From Pseudomonadota bacterium (lineage in GTDB: Bacteria > Pseudomonadota > Alphaproteobacteria > Geminicoccales > Geminicoccaceae), in the NCBI GenBank assembly GCA_030549795.1, contig JAUQQO010000055.1, positions 1,436-65,435 on the forward strand: a stretch of 64,000 nt of DNA. Direction: 5' to 3'. The notes beneath the pieces are model-generated. The model did not search any database. It saw only the letters and a program-made list of their open reading frames with translations, and was not told the DNA's origin. This document shows, piece by piece, positions 53,377-64,000 of this stretch; within the stretch, counting starts at the first letter, position 1; the number at the start of each line of letters is the position of its first letter. A program made the position numbers and the translations under genes.

Positions 53377-53877
53377 TCAGCGGTGCTTCAAGTCGGGTAA
53401 GAGTTCGCGGCAGCGCTCGATGTGCTCGATGCGACCGACCGCGCCCTCAAGGAAACGGCTAAGCCCGAGCTGATCATTTTCGAGCACCACCGCCTCAACC
53501 TTGAGCCGGCAGCGCGCAGCGTCGAGGAGGCCGCGGGCGCGCACCTGAGCCGTATGGTCGAAGAGCGTCACTTCCGAGCCCAGAAGCCCGCCCAATCCGG
53601 CGGGAACGGTCTGGACGTGGCGGCTGCGCAGGCTCGCTTCGCCCTCGACGCGAAAACGCTCGCCGCCAAGGGGCAGCACCGTAACCCGGCGCAGCCGCGC
53701 CTCGCGCCGGTTGCCCTGGCAGAAGCGGGCGCAAGCCGCATCGAGCTTGGCAACGAGATCGGGACGAGCGCGGATGCGATCGGTGATGTCGATGGCGCGC
53801 TCGGCGAAGGCGAAGCGCGCTGCAAGCGTAAGCAGCATCAGCGCGAGTGCGACGCCGGCGCGCTCAATGCGCCTCAC
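53377..53877 (-). CDS. Hypothetical exported protein
   Basis: GTG start at 53877. N-terminal signal GVALALMLLTLAARFAFA. Overlaps the polA stop by 14 nt (co-transcription likely). I recognise no family motif. Confidence 0.5.
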   Translation of the reverse strand: MRRIERAGVALALMLLTLAARFAFAERAIDITDRIRARPDLVAKLDAACARFCQGNRREARLRRVTVLPLGGERFRVEGEASLRSRHVQTVPAGLGGLLGSEVTLFDHTAQVRARGLLDAARCRLKVEAVVLENDQLGLSRFLEGAVGRIEHIERCRELLPDLKHR

Positions 53878-56593
53878 CCCAGTTCTTCCCGACCCCGGTT
53901 TCGACGACGAGCGGCACCGAGAGCTGTGCTGCTCCCTCCATCACCCGTTTGACGAGCGCCGCAAGGGCGGCGACCTCCGCCTCGGGGACCTCGAACAGCA
54001 GCTCGTCGTGTACCTGCAGGAGCATGCGCGCCTTCGATCCCTCGCGCTCGAGGGCGCGCGCGACGCGGATCATCGCCCGCTTCATGATGTCGGCGGCAGT
54101 GCCCTGGATGGGCGCGTTGATCGCCTGGCGTTCCGCGTAGCCCCGACGCGAGGGAAGTCGGCTGTTGATATCCTGGATCCAGCACCGCCGGCCGAAAAGG
54201 GTGGTGACATAGCCTTTCTCGCGCGCCTCGGCCTTGGCTCGCTCCATATAGTCGCGAATACCAGGATACTGCTCGAAGTAGCGATCGATATAGGCCTTGG
54301 CCTCGGCCTGCGGGATTCCCAGCCGTTGCGAGAGACCATAGGCACCGATGCCGTAGACGATGCCGTAGTTGATGGTCTTGGCCGAACGCCGCAGCTCGGG
54401 GCCGACTTCCGAGATCGGCACTTTGAACATTTGGGAAGCGGTGAGCGCATGGATGTCGAGGTTCTCTGCGAACGCCCGCTTTAAGGGTTCGATGTCGGCG
54501 ATGTGCGCGAGGATCCTGAGTTCGATCTGCGAATAGTCGGCCGAGAGCAAGAGATGCCCCGGTTCGGCAACGAAAGCCTCGCGGATGCGCCGGCCCTCTT
54601 GGGTGCGAATGGGAATATTTTGCAAATTGGGCTCGGAAGAGGAAAGGCGCCCGGTGTTCGTCGCAGCCAGCATATAGGCCGTGTGGACGCGCTTGGTCTT
54701 GGGGTCGATTTGCTCGAGAAGCGCATCCGTATAAGTTCGGGTGAGTTTTTGTAGCTGCCGCCACTCGAGGATCACGCGCGGCAATTCGTGTCCTTGCGCG
54801 GCCAGTTCTTCGAGAACTTCGGCGCCGGTGGCGTAGGCGCCGGTCTTGGTCTTGCGGCCGGGCCCACCCAGGCCCAGCTCGTCGAACAGCACCTCCCCGA
54901 GCTGCTTGGGGGAGCCCAAGTTGAACGGGCGGCCGGCGAGCTGGATCGCTTTGGCCTCGAGCTCGGCCATCTCTCGGCCGAACTCGGCCGAGAGCGCGCG
55001 CAATCGGGCGGCGTCGACCTTGACGCCGGCCTGCTCCATCGCCGCGATGATGGGAGGCAGGGGCCGCTCGATCCGCTCGTAGAGGGTAAGTAGACGCTCC
55101 TCGCGCAGGCGCGGGCGCATCGCCAACCACAGCCTGAGCGTCACTTCGGCGTCCTCGGCGGCATAGTCGGTGGCGCGCTCGATCGCCACCCGCTCGAAAC
55201 CGATCGCCTGCGCGCCCTTGCCGCACACCGCCTCGTAGGGAATGGTCTCGTAGTCGAGCCAGCGTTTGGCGAGCTCGTCGAGGCCGTGCCCGTGGCGCCC
55301 GCCATCGAGCACGTAGGAGATCAAGAGCGTGTCGTCGAACGGCGCGATGTGCGGGCAGCCGGCGCGCGCGAGCACCGTGAGGTCGTATTTGATGTTGTGT
55401 CCGATCTTGAGGACCGAGGGGTCCTCGAGAACGGGACGCAAGCGCGCGAAGACCGCAGCAGGCTCGAGTTGGCCCGGAACCAGAGCACCGAAGGCGTCGC
55501 GGTGGCCAAGAGGCACATAGAAGGCCTGCTCGGGCTCGACCGCTAGGGCCACGCCCACGAGCTCGGCTTTCATGACGTCGAGTGCGGTCGTCTCGGTGTC
55601 GATGGCGAGCCGCCCGAGCTCACGGGCCCGCGCGAGCACCGCTTCGAGCGCGGAAAGCGTGGTGATCGTCACCCGCCGGCCGGCGGTGGCCTGCGCCTGC
55701 GCCTTGCGACGCTCGGCTTCCGCTGCCTTGGCGAGCTCTTCGATGCGCCCGACGAGCGAGCGGAAGCCGTTGGCGCGACAGAAGGCCAAGAGCTCGTGCG
55801 GGTCGAACGGTTGGCGGTGGAGGTCTTCGACCGCAACGGGTAAGGGGACGCGGTCCTCGAGCCCCACGAGTCGGAAGGAAAGTCGCGCATCCTCGGCGTG
55901 GCGGGCGAGCGTTTCGCGCCGTTTGGGCTGCTCGATGCGCTCGAGATTGGCGAGCAGCTCCTCAAGCGAGCCGAACCGTTCCAAGAGTTGCGCCGCGGTC
56001 TTGGGTCCCACCCCCGGTACCCCCGGCACATTGTCGGAGCTGTCGCCGGTGAGGGCCAAAAGGTCGCGCAGCTTCTCCGGAGGGACCCCGAATCGTTCGA
56101 TCACCGCCGCGCGGTCGATGGGTTTTTGTTTCAAGGGGTCCCACATCGCGACCCCGGGACCAATGAGCTGCATGAGGTCCTTATCGGAAGAGACGATCAG
56201 GACCTCTTTTCCCTTCTCGCGGGCAGCGCGCACAAAAGAAGCGATGACATCATCCGCCTCGAAGCCCTCGAGTTCGACCACCGGGAGCCCGAAGGCGCGT
56301 GCCGCTTCGCGCACGAGTGGGAACTGGACGACGAGTTCGCGGGGCGCTTCTTCGCGATTGGCCTTGTAAGGCGCGTAGATCTCGTTCCTGAAGCTCTTCT
56401 TGCCGGCGTCGAAGACGACGACGATCGGCTCCTTAGGATGCTCTTGGAGGAGCTTCCAGAGCATGTTGGTGAAACCGAAGACAGCGTTCACGGGCGTGCC
56501 GTCGGGCCGCGTAAGCGGCGGCAACGCGAAGAAGGCCCGGTAGATGTAGCCCGAGCCGTCAACCAGGATGAGCTTCGGCTTCGCTTCGGCCAT
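53864..56593 (-). CDS. polA: DNA polymerase I
   Basis: 909 aa. 5'-nuclease LILVDGSGYIYRAFFAL and GDSSDNVPGVPGVGPKTA. 3'-5' exo region IDTETTALD. Polymerase motifs LLSADYSQIELRILAH, RRSAKTINYGIVYG and LLQVHDELLFE. Confidence 0.97.
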   Translation of the reverse strand: MAEAKPKLILVDGSGYIYRAFFALPPLTRPDGTPVNAVFGFTNMLWKLLQEHPKEPIVVVFDAGKKSFRNEIYAPYKANREEAPRELVVQFPLVREAARAFGLPVVELEGFEADDVIASFVRAAREKGKEVLIVSSDKDLMQLIGPGVAMWDPLKQKPIDRAAVIERFGVPPEKLRDLLALTGDSSDNVPGVPGVGPKTAAQLLERFGSLEELLANLERIEQPKRRETLARHAEDARLSFRLVGLEDRVPLPVAVEDLHRQPFDPHELLAFCRANGFRSLVGRIEELAKAAEAERRKAQAQATAGRRVTITTLSALEAVLARARELGRLAIDTETTALDVMKAELVGVALAVEPEQAFYVPLGHRDAFGALVPGQLEPAAVFARLRPVLEDPSVLKIGHNIKYDLTVLARAGCPHIAPFDDTLLISYVLDGGRHGHGLDELAKRWLDYETIPYEAVCGKGAQAIGFERVAIERATDYAAEDAEVTLRLWLAMRPRLREERLLTLYERIERPLPPIIAAMEQAGVKVDAARLRALSAEFGREMAELEAKAIQLAGRPFNLGSPKQLGEVLFDELGLGGPGRKTKTGAYATGAEVLEELAAQGHELPRVILEWRQLQKLTRTYTDALLEQIDPKTKRVHTAYMLAATNTGRLSSSEPNLQNIPIRTQEGRRIREAFVAEPGHLLLSADYSQIELRILAHIADIEPLKRAFAENLDIHALTASQMFKVPISEVGPELRRSAKTINYGIVYGIGAYGLSQRLGIPQAEAKAYIDRYFEQYPGIRDYMERAKAEAREKGYVTTLFGRRCWIQDINSRLPSRRGYAERQAINAPIQGTAADIMKRAMIRVARALEREGSKARMLLQVHDELLFEVPEAEVAALAALVKRVMEGAAQLSVPLVVETGVGKNWGEAH

Positions 56594-56829: not shown

Positions 56830-57552
56830 TCACCGAGCGGGTGCCGCCTCGAGCTGGGCCAGGATCGCTTCGGCCGCGGCCACGGGATCCGAGGCCGCCG
56901 TAATTGGCCGACCGACGACGATGAGATCGGCTCCGGCTGCGCGCGCTTGAGAGGGCGAAGCGGTGCGCTTTTGATCGCCCAAACCACTCTGCTCGGGGCG
57001 AATGCCGGGCACGACGAGGATGGGCTCGGGCCCGACCGCGGCGCGGATCGCCGCGATTTCCGCAGGTGAACAGACGATCCCCTCGATCCCGCAGGCAACC
57101 GCAAGGCGCGCGAGGTGAACCGCTTGCGCGAGCGGTTCGCGTTCGATGCCGATGGCGGCGAGATCCTCGCCGTCGAGGCTGGTTAAGACGGTGACCGCGA
57201 GCAGGCGCATGGAGGAATTGGCGCTGCGCGCCGCTTCCGCAGCGGCGCGCAGCATGGCGGGGCCGCCGGAAGCGTGGACCGTCAGGAGCGCAGGGCCGAG
57301 CACGGCGGCGCGTCGGACCGCGGCGGCAACGGTGTTCGGGATGTCGTGGAGCTTGAGATCGAGGAAGATCGGCGTGCGCAAGGCCGTGAAGGCGCGAACC
57401 GCAGCAGGCCCTTCGGCCACGAACAGCTCGAGCCCGAGCTTAAAGCAGCCTGCGACCCCCCGCAGCCTGTGCGCGAGCGAAAGTGCGCTTGCGAGATCCG
57501 GCCGGTCGATCGCGACCACAAGGGGATTGGCAAAGCCGGCGGGCAGCGGCAC
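56830..57552 (-). CDS. pyrF: Orotidine 5'-phosphate decarboxylase
   Basis: LVVAIDRPD, FLDLKLHDIPNTV and LIVVGRPI. GTG start. Confidence 0.93.
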   Translation of the reverse strand: MPLPAGFANPLVVAIDRPDLASALSLAHRLRGVAGCFKLGLELFVAEGPAAVRAFTALRTPIFLDLKLHDIPNTVAAAVRRAAVLGPALLTVHASGGPAMLRAAAEAARSANSSMRLLAVTVLTSLDGEDLAAIGIEREPLAQAVHLARLAVACGIEGIVCSPAEIAAIRAAVGPEPILVVPGIRPEQSGLGDQKRTASPSQARAAGADLIVVGRPITAASDPVAAAEAILAQLEAAPAR

Positions 57553-57579
57553 GGATCAAGCCTCCTTGGGTGGCTCGGA

Positions 57580-58338
57580 TCAGGCGCGACGGCGTACCGT
57601 AGAGGGGCCCTCCGCTTCCGCGCGGCGCGCGCGGCCGCGGCCGGCGCGCTTGGCCGCATAAAGAGCCGCGTCCGCGCGCGAGAAGAGGCCGTCGAGATCA
57701 AGACCGGGCTCGAGAACGGCAAGCCCGGCGCTCACGCTCAACGGTACCCGCTCCCCACCGCGCTCGAAGTCCAACAAGCGGACGGCCGAGACGATGCGCT
57801 CGGCCACGAGCGCCGCTTCGTCGGGCGCCGCCCCGTCGAGCAGAACGGCGAACTCTTCCCCGCCGATACGGCCGACGACATCGGAGCGCCGGGTCGCCGC
57901 GAGCAGGGTGCGCGCGATCAGCCGTAGCGCCTCGTCTCCCGCGGCATGTCCATAAGAGTCGTTGATGCTCTTGAAGTGGTCGGCGTCCAACACGAGGAGC
58001 GTGAGCGGACGGGAACTGCGCCGCGCGCGTTGGATCGCGGCTTCCGCGGCCTCAAAGAAGGCCCGGCGGTTGAGAAGCCCGGTCATCGAATCGCGCCGCG
58101 CCAATTCCTCGAGCTCGAGCTTGGCGCGCGCAAGGCGCCGCAGGAGCTCCAAAAGGTAGGCCACCATGGGGCCGGCCATCACGATCGGCGCCGCACCGGC
58201 GAAGGCGAGCCAAAAGGGATCGATCGGATCCTCGCGCAGATGGGCCACGGTAGCGAACAGCCCCATCGAGGCGAGCGAGGAGAGCCCGCTCGCGATGAGC
58301 GTTCCGAGCACCACATCGCGTCCTCGACGGACGAGCAT
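57580..58338 (-). CDS. Membrane-anchored diguanylate cyclase (GGDEF domain)
   Basis: Two or more N-terminal hydrophobic helices, then DSMTGLLNRRAF, LLVLDADHFKSINDSYGH and RIGGEEFAVLL (intact GGEEF, with RRSD at the I-site position). ATG at 58338; the track TTG start is at 58410. Confidence 0.88.
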   Translation of the reverse strand: MLVRRGRDVVLGTLIASGLSSLASMGLFATVAHLREDPIDPFWLAFAGAAPIVMAGPMVAYLLELLRRLARAKLELEELARRDSMTGLLNRRAFFEAAEAAIQRARRSSRPLTLLVLDADHFKSINDSYGHAAGDEALRLIARTLLAATRRSDVVGRIGGEEFAVLLDGAAPDEAALVAERIVSAVRLLDFERGGERVPLSVSAGLAVLEPGLDLDGLFSRADAALYAAKRAGRGRARRAEAEGPSTVRRRA

Positions 58339-59162
58339 CGACCCCCCGCCACTCGGCCCAGCCTTGATCCTATAACGCGAACCGGCCCTTGGCCACAGTC
58401 GCCCGAGCAACCGTGGCGTGAGGGAATCCCGCTACGCTCCTACTTCGGACTGTCGACAGCGTGCCAATCCCGCCCGGCCCGGCTTCTGCCCTGCGCGTCT
58501 CGCTCGCAGCCGCTGCCCCGGGCTCTCGGCACGGAGGGCAGCCGGTGCCCGTGGCGCCTCGCGCGCCTTTGCTGCAGGTGCGCCAAGGCCAACCCGTTTA
58601 CGCTCGGGTGCGCGAAGCGTTTCGCTCGTGAAAAGCGGCCTTCCGCTAAGCGGGTCATTGACCCGATCGGCCGCGGCGCGCATGGAGCGCCGATCGGCAG
58701 GCTGCGTTTTTCGTCGATGAGCGGCTCCTCGATCGCTTGCTCGAAGGCGGCGGGCTTGCGCGCGGCGCTTGGGATCTCGTCGCGCGCACCGGAGCCTCTC
58801 CCCTCGAGAGTGAAAGCACATGCCCTGCGCCCCGCGCGGATGGCTTCTGGGCATGTTGGGGCCGCAACGGGTGGGCCCTTTGTGCGCTTGCGCGCGCGTC
58901 GGCCCCGAGGGGCCGCGGTTCGCCATCGCACCGGGGTAGAGCGCCTTCTGTGATGTTCGCCGTTCGGACGAGTGATTGCCGCCTGCGGGCAAGACTTGCG
59001 GCAGTGGCTTCGGCTTTGCGCGATTTGCTTTTCGACACAAGCGCGATATTGGCGCTCTTCAGACGAAAAGGGGAACCTAGATGGAACAGGCTTCGTTCTT
59101 TACACGATTATGCTTGGTTTGTCCACCTGAGGCTACGACCGAATCCGAGATTTTCTGTGTCT

Positions 59163-59177
59163 ATGCTAGGCTAGCAT
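59163..59177. promoter_or_regulatory. Perfect palindrome ATGCTAG-G-CTAGCAT in the AT-richer region upstream of kamA; candidate operator
   Basis: 7-bp arms around a single central G. Sits in the only AT-rich patch (about 59040-59260) of a 0.9-kb gene-less interval, about 160 nt upstream of the kamA ATG. Confidence 0.3.
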
Positions 59178-59336
59178 GAGCAATGGCGCAATTTCCCTAA
59201 TATTCGCGCATCCGGTATTGGACGAGTGCTGAATTCGCAGACGTGATCCGCAATCGTCGCTTGCAAGTTCTCTTGGCGGCCATATAACCCCTGCGGACCG
59301 GCGCACGGTCGCGTCGGCTGCATTTCGGGGGACGGC

Positions 59337-60650
59337 ATGTCGGAGCTCGAGACCGCGGAAACGCTCCGCCTTCCCAGTCCCGAGGCCTCCGATCGCGGGA
59401 TCGAAGCGGACCACGATGCATGCTCTCAGCCGGGCTCGCCTTTTGGGCACCGTGCGAAGATACGGCGCGCCCGCTTTCCGATCGGTCCGCGCGCGCGGGC
59501 GTTCAAGCGGCGGTTGTTTCCGGAAGTCAGCCGCAGCGAATGGGACGACTGGCGCTGGCAGCTGCGGAATCGTCTGCGCACGCTCGCGCAACTCGAGCGT
59601 GTCTTCCTTTTAAGTGAGGACGAGCGGGAAGCGATACGGCGCCATGAGGGGACGCTGCCCGTCGGCATCACGCCCTATTACGCCGCGCTCATGGACCCCG
59701 AGGATCCAACAGAGCCTTTGCGGCGCACCCACATCCCGGTCGGCGCGGAATATCTCATAAATCCCGGCGAGACCGAGGACCCGCTCGGTGAAGACTCGCA
59801 CATGGTGGCACCCGGTCTCGTCCATCGCTACCCCGATCGGGTGCTGTTCTTGGCCACCGCCTTTTGTTCCACTTATTGCCGCTATTGCACGCGTTCGCGC
59901 ATGGTCGGCGAGGTCGGCGGTGCCCATCGTTTCGCTTACCGCGAGTGGGAACAGGCGCTCGCCTATATCGAAGCCACGCCTTCGGTGCGCGACGTCCTTA
60001 TTTCCGGCGGGGATCCTTTAACACTCGGCGATGAGCGGCTGGATTGGCTGTTGGGACGCCTCAAGCGCATCCGCCACGTCGAGTTCGTGCGCATCGGCAG
60101 CAAAGTCCCCTTCGTCTTGCCGCAACGGATCACCCGCGAGCTCGTGCGCGTGCTGCGCCGGCATCGCCCGATCTGGTTGAGCCTGCACGCCACACATCCC
60201 AAGGAGCTCACTCCCGAGGTCGAAGAAGCCTGCAACCGGCTCGCCGACGCCGGAGTGCCGCTCGGCTCGCAGACCGTGCTGCTCAAGGGTGTCAACGACG
60301 AGGTCACAACGCTCAAGGCGCTCTTCCAGGGTCTGTTGCGGCTGCGCGTGCGCCCCTACTACCTCTTCCAGTGCGACCCCATCCGCGGCTCGGCGCATTT
60401 CCGGACCACCGTCGAGAAAGGCCTCGAGATCATCGCCGGCTTGCGCGGCCACACGAGCGGTTACGCGATCCCTCACTTCGTGGTCGATCTTCCGGGCGGC
60501 GGCGGCAAAGTTCCGCTCGTTCCCGAGTATCTCGTCGGCCGTGAAGGCGAGGATCTCGTCTTCCGCAACTTCGAAGGGCGTCAGTTCCGCTACCATGATC
60601 CCGACGGTCGGCTGGGCCGGTCGGCGGGTGGCGGAGAGGCGCCGTGCTGA
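59337..60650 (+). CDS. kamA: Lysine 2,3-aminomutase (KamA/AblA type radical-SAM, PLP enzyme)
   Basis: Colinear with my memory of Bacillus KamA: EWDDWRWQLRNR, ITPYYAALMDPEDP, HRYPDRVLFLATAFCSTYCRYCTRSRMVG (CxxxCxxC at 59865-59888), ISGGDPL, RPYYLFQCD, GLRGHTSGYAIPHFVVDLPGGGGKVPL (PLP Lys). About 50 N-terminal residues may be an extension. Confidence 0.9.
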   Translation: MSELETAETLRLPSPEASDRGIEADHDACSQPGSPFGHRAKIRRARFPIGPRARAFKRRLFPEVSRSEWDDWRWQLRNRLRTLAQLERVFLLSEDEREAIRRHEGTLPVGITPYYAALMDPEDPTEPLRRTHIPVGAEYLINPGETEDPLGEDSHMVAPGLVHRYPDRVLFLATAFCSTYCRYCTRSRMVGEVGGAHRFAYREWEQALAYIEATPSVRDVLISGGDPLTLGDERLDWLLGRLKRIRHVEFVRIGSKVPFVLPQRITRELVRVLRRHRPIWLSLHATHPKELTPEVEEACNRLADAGVPLGSQTVLLKGVNDEVTTLKALFQGLLRLRVRPYYLFQCDPIRGSAHFRTTVEKGLEIIAGLRGHTSGYAIPHFVVDLPGGGGKVPLVPEYLVGREGEDLVFRNFEGRQFRYHDPDGRLGRSAGGGEAPC

Positions 60651-61651
60651 TCGGTCTCACTTACGATCTGCGCGAGGAGTATCGGGTCCTGGGCCTGTCG
60701 GAGGAGCAGCTCGCCGAGTTCGATTCGGCCGAGACCATCGCCCAATTGCAAGCAACGCTCGAGCGGCTCGGCCATCGCGTCGAGCGCATCGGCAATGTGC
60801 GGCGATTGGCCGAGCGGCTGGTCGCCGGGGACCGCTGGGACCTCGTGTTCAACATCTGCGAAGGCATCGCCGGGCGCGCGCGCGAAGCGCAGGTACCGGC
60901 GCTGCTGGAGGCCTTCGGCCAACCCTACACCTTCGCCGATCCGCTCGTGATGGCGGCGACCTTGGACAAGGCGGTGGCCAAGCGGCTGGTGCGCGACCAT
61001 GGCCTTGCGACCGCACCCTTTGCGGTGGTCGCTCGACCCTCCGACGTCGCCGCGGTCGATCTACCCTTTCCCCTCTTCGTCAAGCCGATCGCCGAGGGGA
61101 CCGGCAAGGGCGTGTCGCCGGCTTCGCTCGTCCGCTCGCGCAAGGAGCTCAAGCGCGCCTGCGCGGTTCTGCTTCTCCGCTTCGCTCAGCCCGTGTTGGT
61201 CGAGACTTACCTTCCGGGTCGCGAGTTCACGGTCGGGATCGTGGGAACCGGGCCGCGTGCGCGCGTGCTGGGCACGCTCGAGATCGAGCTTCTGCCCGGC
61301 GCCGAGCCCGGCGTGTATTCTTTTGCGAACAAGGAGCGGTGCGAGGAACTGGTCCGCTACGTGCTCGTCGATGATGCCGAAGCTAAGGCGGCAGCCGAAC
61401 TCGCCTTGGCCTGCTATCGGGCGCTCGAATGTCGCGACGCCGGGCGGGTGGATCTGCGCAGCGATGCGAGCGGCAAACCGCAGTTTTTGGAAGTGAACCC
61501 GCTTGCGGGTCTCCACCCGACTCACTCCGATCTGCCGATCCTCGCCCAGAAAGTGGGGCTCGGCTATGATGGCTTGATCGGTGCGATCGTCGAGTCCGCA
61601 GCCGAGCGGGTGGGGCTGGCGCGTGCCGGCTTGCGCCGCGCCGGTCGCTGA
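60644..61651 (+). CDS. ATP-grasp ligase, D-alanine--D-alanine ligase-like family (paralog 1)
   Basis: The GTG at 60644 overlaps the kamA stop by 7 nt. DLVFNICEGIAGRAREAQVPALLEAFGQPYTF, DKAVAKRLV, FPLFVKPIAEGTGKGV and AGRVDLRSDASGKPQFLEVNPLAG (Mg/ATP-binding D...E-x-N). Confidence 0.8.
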   Translation: MLIGLTYDLREEYRVLGLSEEQLAEFDSAETIAQLQATLERLGHRVERIGNVRRLAERLVAGDRWDLVFNICEGIAGRAREAQVPALLEAFGQPYTFADPLVMAATLDKAVAKRLVRDHGLATAPFAVVARPSDVAAVDLPFPLFVKPIAEGTGKGVSPASLVRSRKELKRACAVLLLRFAQPVLVETYLPGREFTVGIVGTGPRARVLGTLEIELLPGAEPGVYSFANKERCEELVRYVLVDDAEAKAAAELALACYRALECRDAGRVDLRSDASGKPQFLEVNPLAGLHPTHSDLPILAQKVGLGYDGLIGAIVESAAERVGLARAGLRRAGR

Positions 61652-62649
61652 TGGAGCGGATCGTCATCCTCCACGGCGCGCTCGATCCCGGCGAGCGTCC
61701 GGACGAGCACGATACGCTCGTTCAGGTGCGCGAGGTCGAAGCGATCCTGGTCGCGCTCGGTTTTCGCACCGAGATCGTGGGCGTGGGGCTTGATCTGCGG
61801 GCGCTTTTGGCGCTCGCGCGCGATCCGCCGGCGGCCGTCTTCTACCTCGTCGAGGCGCTCGACGGCCGCGCCGCGCTCCAGCATCTGCCGGCGGCGGTGC
61901 TCGAAAGCCTGGGTATCGCCTTCACGGGAGCCCCAGCAACGGCGCTCGCCCTCACCACCGACAAGATCGCCGCCAAGCGGCTGATGCGGGAAGTCGGCCT
62001 GCCCACCCCCGAGTGGTGCGAAGGCCCGGCTCTTGCCGATCCCAAACGGCTGTGGATCGTCAAAGCGGTGGATGAGGACGCTTCGCTCGGTCTCGATGCC
62101 GGTGCGGTGGTGCCGGGATTTGCGGTGGCGGCGCGCATGGCCTGCATGCGGGCGCGTTGGGGCGGGCGGTGGTTCGCCGAGGCGTTCATAGAGGGGCGGG
62201 AATTCAACGTCCCCTTGCTCGAGGGGCCAAACGGGGTCGCGGTGATGCCGATAGGCGAAATCGACTTCAGCGACTATCCCCGCGACCGTCCGGCCATCGT
62301 CGACTACGACGCCAAATGGCGGCCGGGCTCGATCACCTGGAAGACGACACCGCGGATCTTCACCTCGCGCCCCGAAGACGGCGCTTTGCGGGCCGAACTC
62401 GCTGGGCTCGCGCGCCGCTGTTGGGATCTCTTCGGTCTGCGCGGCTACGCGCGTGTCGATTTTCGGGTCGACAGCCAAGGTCGGCCCTGGATCCTCGAGG
62501 TCAACGCCAACCCCTGTCTTTCCGCCGACGCTGGCTTCATCGCTGCGCTCGAAGAAGCCGGGTTCGATCAGCGCGAGGCGGTTGCGCGCATCCTCGGCCT
62601 CGCCTTGCGCGCCAAAGGCGGCTCGCGCGCGCCTTGCGCCGCCGAATGA
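61651..62649 (+). CDS. ATP-grasp ligase, D-alanine--D-alanine ligase-like family (paralog 2)
   Basis: The ATG at 61651 overlaps the upstream TGA by 1 nt. LVEALDGRAALQHLPAVLESLGIAFTG region, DKIAAKRLM, WIVKAVDEDASLG and YARVDFRVDSQGRPWILEVNANPCL. Confidence 0.8.
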   Translation: MERIVILHGALDPGERPDEHDTLVQVREVEAILVALGFRTEIVGVGLDLRALLALARDPPAAVFYLVEALDGRAALQHLPAAVLESLGIAFTGAPATALALTTDKIAAKRLMREVGLPTPEWCEGPALADPKRLWIVKAVDEDASLGLDAGAVVPGFAVAARMACMRARWGGRWFAEAFIEGREFNVPLLEGPNGVAVMPIGEIDFSDYPRDRPAIVDYDAKWRPGSITWKTTPRIFTSRPEDGALRAELAGLARRCWDLFGLRGYARVDFRVDSQGRPWILEVNANPCLSADAGFIAALEEAGFDQREAVARILGLALRAKGGSRAPCAAE

Positions 62650-63185
62650 GCGGAAGCGGCGTGAGCATTTCTTTTCTGCGCGCACCGTGCGGCTTTCGAT
62701 CGTGCGTGCGCGCCGAGGACGCAGGCGCGGTTGCCGAGCTCGTCAAAGCGACCGGCTTCTTTCGGCCGAGCGAGATCGCCATCGCGCGCGAGCTGGTCGA
62801 AGAGGCCTGCGCGCGCGGAGCCGAGGGTTCGGGCTATCATTTCCTCTTTGCCGACGACGAGGTCGGTCTTGCCGGCTATGTCTGCTTCGGCCCGATCGCG
62901 GGCACGGAGGCGAGCTTCGATCTCTATTGGATCGCGGTCCACCCCGACCGGCAAAGGCGCGGTCTTGGGCGCGCGCTGTTGGGAGCTGCCGAAGCGCGCA
63001 TCGCCGCCATGGGCGGGCGACGCATCTATATCGAGACCTCGACGAGCCCGCTCTACGCCGCCACGCGCGCCTTCTACGCCGCCTGCGGTTATCGCCACGA
63101 AGCGACGCTCCCCGACTTCTACGCGCCCGGCGACGGCAAGCTGTTTTTCGTCAAAGTTCTGGGTTCGCAGGAGCAGAAGAGGTGA
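62646..63185 (+). CDS. GNAT family N-acetyltransferase
   Basis: The ATG at 62646 overlaps the upstream stop (ATGA). Acetyl-CoA motif A: WIAVHPDRQRRGLGRALLGAAEARIAAMGGRRIYIETS, plus AFYAACGYRHE. The track ORF from 62157 is an extension in the same frame. Confidence 0.85.
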   Translation: MSGSGVSISFLRAPCGFRSCVRAEDAGAVAELVKATGFFRPSEIAIARELVEEACARGAEGSGYHFLFADDEVGLAGYVCFGPIAGTEASFDLYWIAVHPDRQRRGLGRALLGAAEARIAAMGGRRIYIETSTSPLYAATRAFYAACGYRHEATLPDFYAPGDGKLFFVKVLGSQEQKR

Positions 63186-63555
63186 AGATCGGGCGCATCG
63201 CCATCCGGCCGGCGGGCAAAAAGGGCCTCGGCGTCTTCGCAGCCGAGCCGATCGCGCGGTGCGATGCTGGAGAGCCGAGCGGTCTTCGAGCTCGCGGTTG
63301 AGGACGCGCCGCTCATCGAGGGCACGCGCTTTCGCCACCACTGTTGCGTGCATCCCGAGGAGGAGCGAGGCGTGGTCGTTTCTCGGCTGGCTCACCCTCG
63401 TCAATCCCGGCGCAGCGCCCTCGCTCGCGCCCATTTGGTCGCGTGATCTCGAGGTGGGTTGGGTGGTCGCGCCCAAGGCCACGGGTGATCTTACGGCGCG
63501 GGTCGAGCTTACGATCGACTACGGCTGTCCGCTCTGGTTCGATCCCTTGCCCTAA
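63182..63555 (+). pseudogene. SET-domain (lysine methyltransferase-like) gene apparently interrupted by two frameshifts
   Basis: The GTG at 63182 overlaps the GNAT stop (GTGA). Frame a reads VKIGRIAIRPAGKKGLGVFAAEPIAR. Frame b, from about 63258, reads GAMLESRAVFELAVEDAPLIEGTRFRHHCCVHPEEERGVVV. Frame c, from about 63380, reads FLGWLTLVNPGAAPSLAPIW...VVAPKATGDLTARVELTIDYGCPLWFDPLP and stops at 63555. Joined together, these resemble small bacterial SET proteins (GxGVFA ... NHSxxPN ... ELTxDYG ... WF). Confidence 0.35.
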
Positions 63556-63929
63556 GGCGAAGGACAGGCCCGAAGCCGCACCGCTTCGATCGGAGCATCG
63601 GGCGGCAAAAGCTCGGCGAGTGATCGGCATTCCGCGTGCGCACTGCACAGCTGCCAATCCTCGACCTCGCGCGAGCGCGAAAGACGAAGTTCAAAAACGG
63701 GCGCGAGCGTGGGGCGAAAGCGGAACACACCGCCCTTGAGCTGCGCGTCGGCGCCGGGCTCCATGCCGGCACCGCTTCCCAGAACACGGCTCTCGACCAA
63801 GACGAGTGCCCCCTCCACTGCCTGCCAATCCTCTTCCCAGCGCGTATGCTCGACCGAGTGGGTCCAAAGCAGGGTGAAGGCGGAAAGCGCGAGACGAACG
63901 GCGACGCCCGGGGCTTCGAGGCAGATCAC
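63552..63929 (-). CDS. Small DUF1850-like protein (family usually associated with TRAP-type transporters)
   Basis: 125 aa, GTG start. WTHSVEHTRWEEDWQ and LGSGAGMEP resemble the DUF1850 pattern as I remember it. A further minus-strand gene appears to end just upstream at the window edge. Confidence 0.45.
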   Translation of the reverse strand: MICLEAPGVAVRLALSAFTLLWTHSVEHTRWEEDWQAVEGALVLVESRVLGSGAGMEPGADAQLKGGVFRFRPTLAPVFELRLSRSREVEDWQLCSAHAECRSLAELLPPDAPIEAVRLRACPSP

Positions 63930-64000
63930 GGGGCGTAATCGCTCACGACGTCACAGCAGCGGGGCGGGCGCGCCGCGTGCGCCAGAAATGATGGGCGAAG

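Follow-up and report, generated by a model that had tools for sequence, protein, structure and literature searches.

A conserved gene cassette of a KamA-family aminomutase, two Ddl-like ATP-grasp ligases and a GNAT acetyltransferase, predicted to make an acetylated beta-lysine conjugate

Introduction

In the archaeal AblA/AblB and the Bacillus KamA/YodP systems, a lysine 2,3-aminomutase with lysine-binding Asp residues is encoded next to a GNAT acetyltransferase, and beta-lysine is the committed intermediate. These two enzymes are the minimal set for N-epsilon-acetyl-beta-lysine, as in ablAB of Methanosarcina and yodP-kamA of Bacillus subtilis. In the EpmB/EpmA (YjeK/PoxA) system of EF-P, a KamA-family aminomutase feeds beta-lysine to an ATP-dependent ligation. 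In the NAGGN pathway, Ngg (a bifunctional GNAT and ATP-grasp protein) and AsnO produce the osmolyte N-acetylglutaminylglutamine amide. The present work concerns a four-gene cassette at positions 59337-63185 of a 64,000-nucleotide (nt) stretch of contig JAUQQO010000055.1 (assembly GCA_030549795.1, Geminicoccaceae); the whole stretch is referred to as the window. The cassette encodes a KamA-family aminomutase, two ATP-grasp ligases related to D-alanine--D-alanine ligase (Ddl), named AG1 and AG2, and a GNAT acetyltransferase. It is real and widespread, while its chemistry is inferred from the encoded proteins.

The cassette shares the aminomutase, the adjacent GNAT and the predicted beta-lysine intermediate with AblA/AblB and KamA/YodP, but it adds two obligatory ATP-grasp ligases. 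As in EpmB/EpmA, beta-lysine from a KamA-family enzyme would enter an ATP-dependent ligation; however, the LysRS-like ligase EpmA is absent, Ddl-type ligases are present instead, and no EF-P gene is linked. The cassette is also similar in logic to the NAGGN pathway, in which peptide bond formation by an ATP-grasp enzyme and N-acetylation by a GNAT are combined, sometimes in one polypeptide. It differs in the predicted use of beta-lysine and in having two Ddl-type ligases, and no amidotransferase was found in any cassette neighbourhood examined. No published description of this cassette, or of a system with the same composition, was found in the literature searched. This agrees with an earlier note on the same DNA, made from the sequence alone, whose author model knew of no characterised system of this kind.

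Results

Organization and conservation of the cassette

The four genes all lie on the plus strand and overlap one another. The first encodes a radical S-adenosylmethionine and pyridoxal phosphate (PLP) enzyme of the lysine 2,3-aminomutase type (KamA; 59337..60650, 437 amino acids (aa)). It is followed by AG1 (60644..61651, 335 aa, GTG start), by the second, more divergent Ddl-fold ligase AG2 (61651..62649, 332 aa), and by a single-domain GNAT N-acetyltransferase of the 2R7H subfamily (62646..63185, 179 aa). KamA and AG1 overlap by 7 nt (AG1 GTG at 60644, KamA stop at 60648-60650), AG1 and AG2 by 1 nt (AG1 TGA at 61649-61651, AG2 ATG at 61651-61653), and AG2 and the GNAT by 4 nt (ATGA, 62646-62649). 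The open reading frame (ORF) coordinates reproduced exactly the three junctions that the earlier note had described (7 nt, 1 nt and ATGA). Independent gene calls in two near-identical assemblies from other samples (L088 and L089) gave the same four proteins with the same overlaps.

Relatives of AG2, identified by a profile search, span more than 10 phyla and at least 573 species-level genomes, and 1034 clusters matched at E<=1e-30 in a library of 50%-identity representatives. The carriers include Alpha- and Gammaproteobacteria, many Desulfobacterota (including Smithella and Syntrophaceae), Planctomycetota, Bacteroidales, Fibrobacter, Spirochaetes, Acidobacteria, Myxococcota, Krumholzibacteriota, and Bdellovibrionota. 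Some carriers are in culture, among them Ruegeria sediminis CAU 1488 and Methyloceanibacter marginalis R-67177. For the comparison of neighbourhoods, 89 loci were fetched, and each count is limited to the loci with enough sequence on the relevant side. The gene order KamA-AG1-AG2 was found in 74/74 loci from more than 10 phyla, with AG1 present in all, and the GNAT follows AG2 in 78/81 loci. An arrangement that recurs in this way is far beyond chance, and the cassette is a dedicated, co-inherited module; the conservation of the neighbourhood, which had been named as a check in the earlier note, was thereby confirmed. AG1 is the most conserved cassette protein, with 54-64% identity to the window in most loci outside the Geminicoccaceae and 51-68% overall. 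In one locus (L072), a large repeat-rich, secreted-looking protein stands after AG2 in the place of the GNAT.

Several cassette genes are also found as fusions. AG1-AG2 polypeptides of 640-730 aa (P0384, P0388 and P0402) contain AG1 at the N-terminus and AG2 at the C-terminus. These single polypeptides suggest that the ligase pair works as a pseudo-heterodimer. AG2-GNAT fusion proteins have 490-546 aa, and fusions of 755 aa join an HDAC domain to the cassette GNAT, behind a weak GNAT-like region at the N-terminus. The public annotations of the cassette proteins ("D-alanine--D-alanine ligase", "RimI-like", and "putative D-alanine N-acetyltransferase") are generic or misleading.

A short-tailed clade of lysine 2,3-aminomutases

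The KamA of the window aligns with the L-lysine 2,3-aminomutase of Clostridium subterminale (PDB 2A5H) at E 4.8e-128. The motifs CSTYCRYC (residues 177-184) and GGGGK (residues 387-391) are present, as had been read from the sequence before. The CxxxCxxC cysteines C177, C181 and C184 correspond to C125, C129 and C132 of 2A5H, and K391 of PGGGGK corresponds to the PLP-binding K337. R186, D347 and D384 correspond to R134, D293 and D330. All of these residues are invariant in 72 cassette orthologs. In lysine 2,3-aminomutase, R134 holds the alpha-carboxylate, and D293/D330 hold the epsilon-ammonium group; in glutamate 2,3-aminomutase, Lys and Asn stand in for the two aspartates. From the invariant lysine-binding and cofactor residues, the likely substrate of the cassette KamA is free lysine or a basic amino acid closely resembling it.

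Among the family models, KamA passed only the general one (TIGR00238, 346 bits against a cut-off of 199). It scored below the cut-offs of the AblA model TIGR03820 (456.8 bits, cut-off 525.4), the Glu-type model (411 bits, cut-off 650), the Arg-type model (385 bits, cut-off 600), and the EpmB model (255 bits, cut-off 369). The LAM_C match is limited to positions 1-60 of 127, and the tail after GGGGK has a median of about 40 residues in the orthologs. In the Clostridium enzyme, C268, C375, C377 and C380 (2A5H numbering) form the inter-subunit zinc site. A C-terminal CxCxxC was found in 0/70 tails of cassette orthologs, and the equivalent of C268 is D, S, N or E. By these comparisons, the cassette KamA forms a distinct short-tailed clade without the Zn-site cysteines, which sets it apart from AblA. 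The earlier note had called it a full KamA/AblA-type enzyme rather than an EpmB; it is indeed closer to AblA than to EpmB, whereas the description as full-length did not hold. The clade also has a poorly conserved N-terminal extension of about 45-60 residues.

Two Ddl-fold ligases with altered substrate pockets

AG1 and AG2 share 28% sequence identity (E 2e-17). They are paralogs, about as distant from each other as each is from Ddl. Both match Pfam Dala_Dala_lig_C (AG1 93 bits, AG2 60 bits), and both fall below the cut-offs of the Ddl models NF002378 (151 and 90 bits, respectively; cut-off 243) and TIGR01205 (115 and 75 bits; cut-off 246). Their sequence matches in the PDB were only Ddl, VanA-type, and D-Ala-D-Lac ligases. 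Structure prediction, which had been suggested in the earlier note, gave confident Ddl-type folds. The AlphaFold2 model of AG1 (pLDDT 91.7) found its best PDB matches among Ddl structures, with TM scores of 0.75-0.82 at 23-31% identity. The model of AG2 has a pLDDT of 91.1, and its best matches are also Ddl, with TM scores of 0.67-0.77 by query length and 0.69-0.84 by target length.

These fold searches also bear on whether the ligases act on proteins. RimK, TTL, and LysX-type enzymes ligate residues onto proteins, and AG1 and AG2 might in the same way join beta-lysine to a carboxylate or an amine on a protein from another locus, with the GNAT, HDAC, and SET proteins then acetylating, deacetylating or methylating the added lysine-like amine. 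However, the 50 matches listed for each ligase were all small-molecule Ddl-type enzymes (D-Ala-D-Ala ligases and one D-Ala-D-Lac ligase), and none of them was RimK, LysX or TTL. The matches of AG1 and AG2 to the rimK-related and TTL models reached 19-23 bits only, over the C-terminal metal motif.

The substrate pockets were compared by alignment of the AG1 and AG2 families to E. coli DdlB. The DdlB sequence was entered by hand, and the expected catalytic residues in it land at their published numbers. Both families keep the full set of residues for ATP, Mg and the transition state: K97, K144, E180, E187, K215, R255, D257, E270 and N272 (DdlB numbering). Both proteins have the D270/E283/N285 set, so that the description of two paralogs with a D...E-x-N motif was borne out. 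With the ATP-binding lysines, K215, R255, D257, E270 and N272 kept, the ligases are expected to form amide bonds with ATP by way of an acyl phosphate. The residues around the two D-alanine sites are different: neither the D-Ala1 triad E15/S150/Y216 nor the D-Ala2 site S281/L282 is conserved in AG1 and AG2. In AG1, Y216 is replaced by an invariant E231, L282 by an invariant D296, and S150 by T153, while S281 and G276 are kept. In AG2, the E15 loop contains an invariant D18 (for E15) and D21, and a nearly invariant E19. The other changes in the AG2 pocket are S150 to A144, Y216 to W223, G276 to C289, H280 to D293, S281 to A294, and L282 to G295. From the alignment, it was concluded that AG1 and AG2 are probably active amide ligases that use the Ddl mechanism on substrates different from those of Ddl. 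The acidic residues in place of the D-alanine pocket suggest cationic diamino substrates, such as beta-lysine. In AG1, the serine for the acceptor carboxylate is kept beside an aspartate, which would fit an acceptor amino acid whose side chain is cationic. In AG2, the loss of this serine and the gain of D293 and C289 would fit a different acceptor, possibly one without a carboxylate.

The Ddl-type fold (TM 0.67-0.84) and the shared ATP and catalytic residues raise the question of a cell-wall role, in which AG1 and AG2 would be an alternative Ddl making an unusual dipeptide, possibly with beta-lysine, for peptidoglycan. The best sequence and structure matches are Ddl enzymes, and the public annotation is D-alanine--D-alanine ligase. 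On the other hand, the scores lie far from the 243-bit cut-off, the residues for both D-alanine sites are not kept, and the genes that accompany the ligases are KamA and the GNAT: no cell-wall gene, such as one for a Mur ligase or a racemase, was linked to the cassette in the neighbourhoods examined. All of the cassette proteins appear to be soluble cytoplasmic enzymes. The cell-wall role is therefore considered very improbable. An identity of AG1 and AG2 as ordinary cell-wall Ddl, which the earlier note had held against its own proposal, was ruled out by the scores below the NCBIfam cut-offs and the replaced D-Ala pocket residues.

The GNAT acetyltransferase

The GNAT matches Pfam Acetyltransf_7 (52 bits) and Acetyltransf_1 (50 bits) above the cut-offs. 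It is a clear ortholog of PDB 2R7H (E 8e-40, residues 15-168), a structural-genomics entry that its depositors named "putative D-alanine N-acetyltransferase". No functional study of 2R7H was found in the literature searched. We suspect that the name was borrowed from the neighbouring "Ddl" genes, and it would be unfounded if the cassette ligases are not Ddl. The 2R7H-type subfamily contains more than 1000 proteins, all generically named. The best named model is RimI (41 bits, cut-off 86), followed by MshD and then by EctA and more distant models, all below their cut-offs. The RimI match, although below the cut-off, would be compatible with a protein target.

With KamA and a GNAT at hand, the ligases might be unrelated or dispensable, and the sole product might be N-epsilon-acetyl-beta-lysine, made by a plain AblA/AblB-type pathway from the minimal two-enzyme set. 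This is improbable. Wherever the locus is complete, in more than 10 phyla, KamA is accompanied by both ligases; the genes are coupled by overlaps, and no protein of the set is better conserved than AG1, a ligase. In some genomes, AG2 is fused to the GNAT or to AG1. Moreover, the GNAT, which is of the 2R7H type, consists of one domain of about 160-180 aa, and it gave no match to the AblB model TIGR03827 at E<=0.01. That it is not of the AblB/YodP type was counted in support of the earlier proposal of a larger conjugate.

Accessory genes

An HDAC-family deacetylase is present in 28/73 loci (about 40%). It is a separate protein or part of a fusion with the GNAT, and in one locus it lies between KamA and AG1; none is present in the window. 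Its best PDB matches are bacterial acetylpolyamine amidohydrolases (APAHs; 226-199 bits, E 8e-66 to 1e-57), and its HH dyad, its zinc ligands (D-x-H and D), and the tyrosine of GGY are all intact. APAHs deacetylate N-acetylated aminoalkyl chains, and an N-epsilon-acetylated beta-lysine side chain would resemble such substrates. The cassette deacetylase is thus similar to the enzymes that work with polyamine N-acetyltransferases, with an intact active site; unlike in the APAH systems, it can be fused to the cassette GNAT and a weak N-terminal GNAT-like domain, and it is linked to predicted beta-lysine synthesis. Opposing activities in one chain are also known from glutathionylspermidine synthetase/amidase. 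The triple fusion (GNAT-like region, APAH-type HDAC, and cassette GNAT) is seen at 8985-11249 of L001, and also in L003, L011, L019, L030, L060, and others. In three sequences, the N-terminal GNAT-like region was located at residues of about 50-150 (E 2e-4 to 5e-4).

An acetyltransferase and a deacetylase found together are reminiscent of yodP/yodQ, and the cassette might serve the catabolism or detoxification of lysine or beta-lysine, like the kamA-yodP-yodQ operon of B. subtilis. However, two ATP-consuming ligases make no sense in such a route, and no aminotransferase, dehydrogenase, CoA-transferase, or 3,5-aminomutase was linked to the cassette in the neighbourhoods examined. This explanation is the most improbable of those considered.

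A small SET-domain protein is encoded after the GNAT in some lineages. The SET gene is accessory (9/73 loci), and all of its carriers are alphaproteobacterial. Intact orthologs pass the Pfam SET model (41.8 bits in L008, cut-off 22.4). In the window, the SET gene (63182..63555, plus strand) is a pseudogene. The GNAT stop overlaps a GTG at 63182 (GTGA), as reported before, but the gene behind this overlap is not intact. The frame from 63182 ends after 39 codons. DNA alignment with the intact orthologs in L008, L009 and L005 revealed two 2-bp deletions; tblastn gave three segments in three frames (63182-63253, 63258-63380, and 63382-63552), and Pfam found no match in the fragments. Both deletions are shared by L088 and L089, which come from other samples, and this indicates gene decay rather than sequencing error. 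The earlier note had listed SET among the families with protein-modifying members. As a lineage-specific accessory that is dead in the window, the SET gene cannot serve as a core argument for protein decoration. In L005, two SET genes lie in tandem.

Two other accessory proteins are found within or beside the cassette. In six Syntrophia loci of the Smithella/Syntrophaceae group (L066 9005-9352; also L051, L053, L073, L082, and L083), AG2 and the GNAT are separated by the gene for a DMT_6 (DUF486) membrane protein of 115 aa (Pfam 155 bits). In a spirochaete (L030 11300-11629), it lies directly after the cassette. Degraded DMT_6 remnants are seen in L067 and L085. A CxxCxxCC cysteine-cluster protein (PF03692, YkgJ-like, 180-217 aa) is encoded between KamA and AG1 in four loci (L039 5770-6381, L072 6121-6774, L081 6461-7012, and L047 197-655) from Planctomycetota, Myxococcota, and a Desulfobulbaceae metagenome-assembled genome (MAG). 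Perhaps this protein serves the radical enzyme as a redox or metal partner.

Flanking genes and regulation

The genes around the cassette are housekeeping genes unrelated to it. Upstream, on the minus strand, are polA (53864-56593), pyrF (56830-57552), and a GGDEF protein gene (57580-58410). Downstream, on the minus strand, there is a DUF1850 gene. Relatives also have, on this side, a DctM-type permease and an NMT1_3-family solute-binding protein, read here as a TRAP-type transporter. The nearest relatives of the window are MAGs of the alphaproteobacterial family Geminicoccaceae. The GGDEF gene and KamA are divergent, and the 926 bp between them (58411..59336) contain no credible gene. This stretch is the presumed promoter or leader, and only its last ~180 bp are conserved with L008. 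No tRNA, no notable repeats, and no sigma-70-like site were found in it. In L005, an Amidohydro_2 gene fills the equivalent position, and no remnant of this gene was detected in the window. GGDEF proteins are the only recurring flank (14-17/89 loci). They occur at scattered distances and orientations and are immediately adjacent to the cassette only in Geminicoccaceae, so a role as functional partner was rejected in favour of chance or lineage synteny.

Rfam found no family at E<=1 in the window at 57000-64000. In 14 diverse loci, no riboswitch was found at the Rfam gathering threshold, and the sole match was a tRNA. In the lack of a Na+ or other riboswitch in these sequences, the cassette is unlike AblA/AblB. 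No transporter, regulator or target protein is conserved across the fetched loci. Among the small ORFs of 25-95 aa, taken as candidates for precursor peptides, none recurs outside close relatives. The 64-kb window contains no further copy of Ddl, KamA or HDAC, and tblastn of AG1 against 72,556 plasmids gave no match.

Discussion

The reading proposed here starts from what was observed of the genes (their content, coupling, conservation, and fusions) and of the proteins (their folds and active-site residues), and from these the substrates, step order, product, and physiological role are deduced. The cassette probably makes a small N-acetylated beta-lysine pseudopeptide in the cytoplasm, by a translationally coupled route independent of nonribosomal peptide synthetases (NRPSs). 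KamA would convert free L-lysine to beta-lysine. The GNAT would acetylate either beta-lysine or the conjugate on an amino group, in an order that is itself a deduction. The acetylation might neutralise charge, as in N-epsilon-acetyl-beta-lysine, or shield the epsilon-amine from an activated carboxylate; the latter idea is by analogy to the protective N-acetylation in arginine biosynthesis. AG1 and AG2 would act as an obligate pair, in which each ligase makes one amide bond via an acyl phosphate. A run from free lysine would thus cost two ATP and one acetyl-CoA. In about 40% of the lineages, the APAH-type deacetylase would remove the acetyl group, for maturation or homeostasis. In some alphaproteobacteria, there is also a small SET methyltransferase, which is inactivated in the window. 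The product would be an N-acetylated pseudopeptide of two or three components, whose role is probably like that of a compatible solute or a polyamine.

The AG1-AG2, AG2-GNAT, and deacetylase-GNAT fusions strengthen this logic of beta-lysine formation, two ligations, and acetylation. A small product made in this way, as the earlier note had proposed, remains the best reading, and it is given somewhat better than an even chance. The roles as siderophore, antibiotic or osmolyte that the note had also suggested gained no direct support. Several points weigh against this reading. The evidence points to no particular product, phenotype, amine or carboxylate partner, or step order. In the loci examined, neither a transporter nor a regulator is conserved and riboswitches were not found, and an osmolyte role is therefore without direct support. 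The carriers come from varied habitats (marine, hot spring, peat, and digesters). The GNAT is not adjacent in three loci that have KamA-AG1-AG2 (L058, L072, and L078). The comparison of the AG1 and AG2 pockets is by sequence alignment to the DdlB sequence entered by hand. Finally, the GNAT, HDAC, and SET families also act on proteins.

The last point leads back to the modification of a distant protein, which the earlier note had left as an alternative. Every family in the cassette has protein-modifying members, SET and HDAC domains recur as accessories, and the lack of a conserved exporter would fit an intracellular target. However, the HDAC domain is nearest to APAHs, the SET protein occurs only in alphaproteobacteria and has decayed in the window, some loci contain a DMT membrane protein within the cassette, and no neighbouring target or precursor ORF of any size is conserved. 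Protein modification is thus regarded as unlikely, though it deserves a place among the explanations. A still less likely form of it is a new tagging system, in which beta-lysine or a beta-lysyl dipeptide would be placed on a carboxylate of a housekeeping protein, with the GNAT as writer, the APAH-like enzyme as eraser, and the SET protein as methyl-writer on the added amine; this would amount to a bacterial system of marks based on a non-proteinogenic residue. Between the two kinds of target, the evidence leans to a small molecule, because of the Ddl-type fold, the APAH-type deacetylase, the embedded DMT protein in two phyla, and the absence of a conserved peptide or target gene.

If the small-molecule reading is true, several thousand database proteins named D-alanine--D-alanine ligase, and also PDB 2R7H, would be mis-named, and the cassette ligases would represent two new substrate specificities within the Ddl fold. 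The existence of cultured carriers makes the question directly testable. Hundreds of species from at least ten phyla, including sulfate reducers, syntrophs, planctomycetes, marine and hot-spring alphaproteobacteria, Bacteroidales, and Fibrobacter, would make an undescribed beta-lysine metabolite by a compact NRPS-independent route. This metabolite would be a new compatible solute or polyamine-like compound; less likely, the cassette would carry out a new protein modification.

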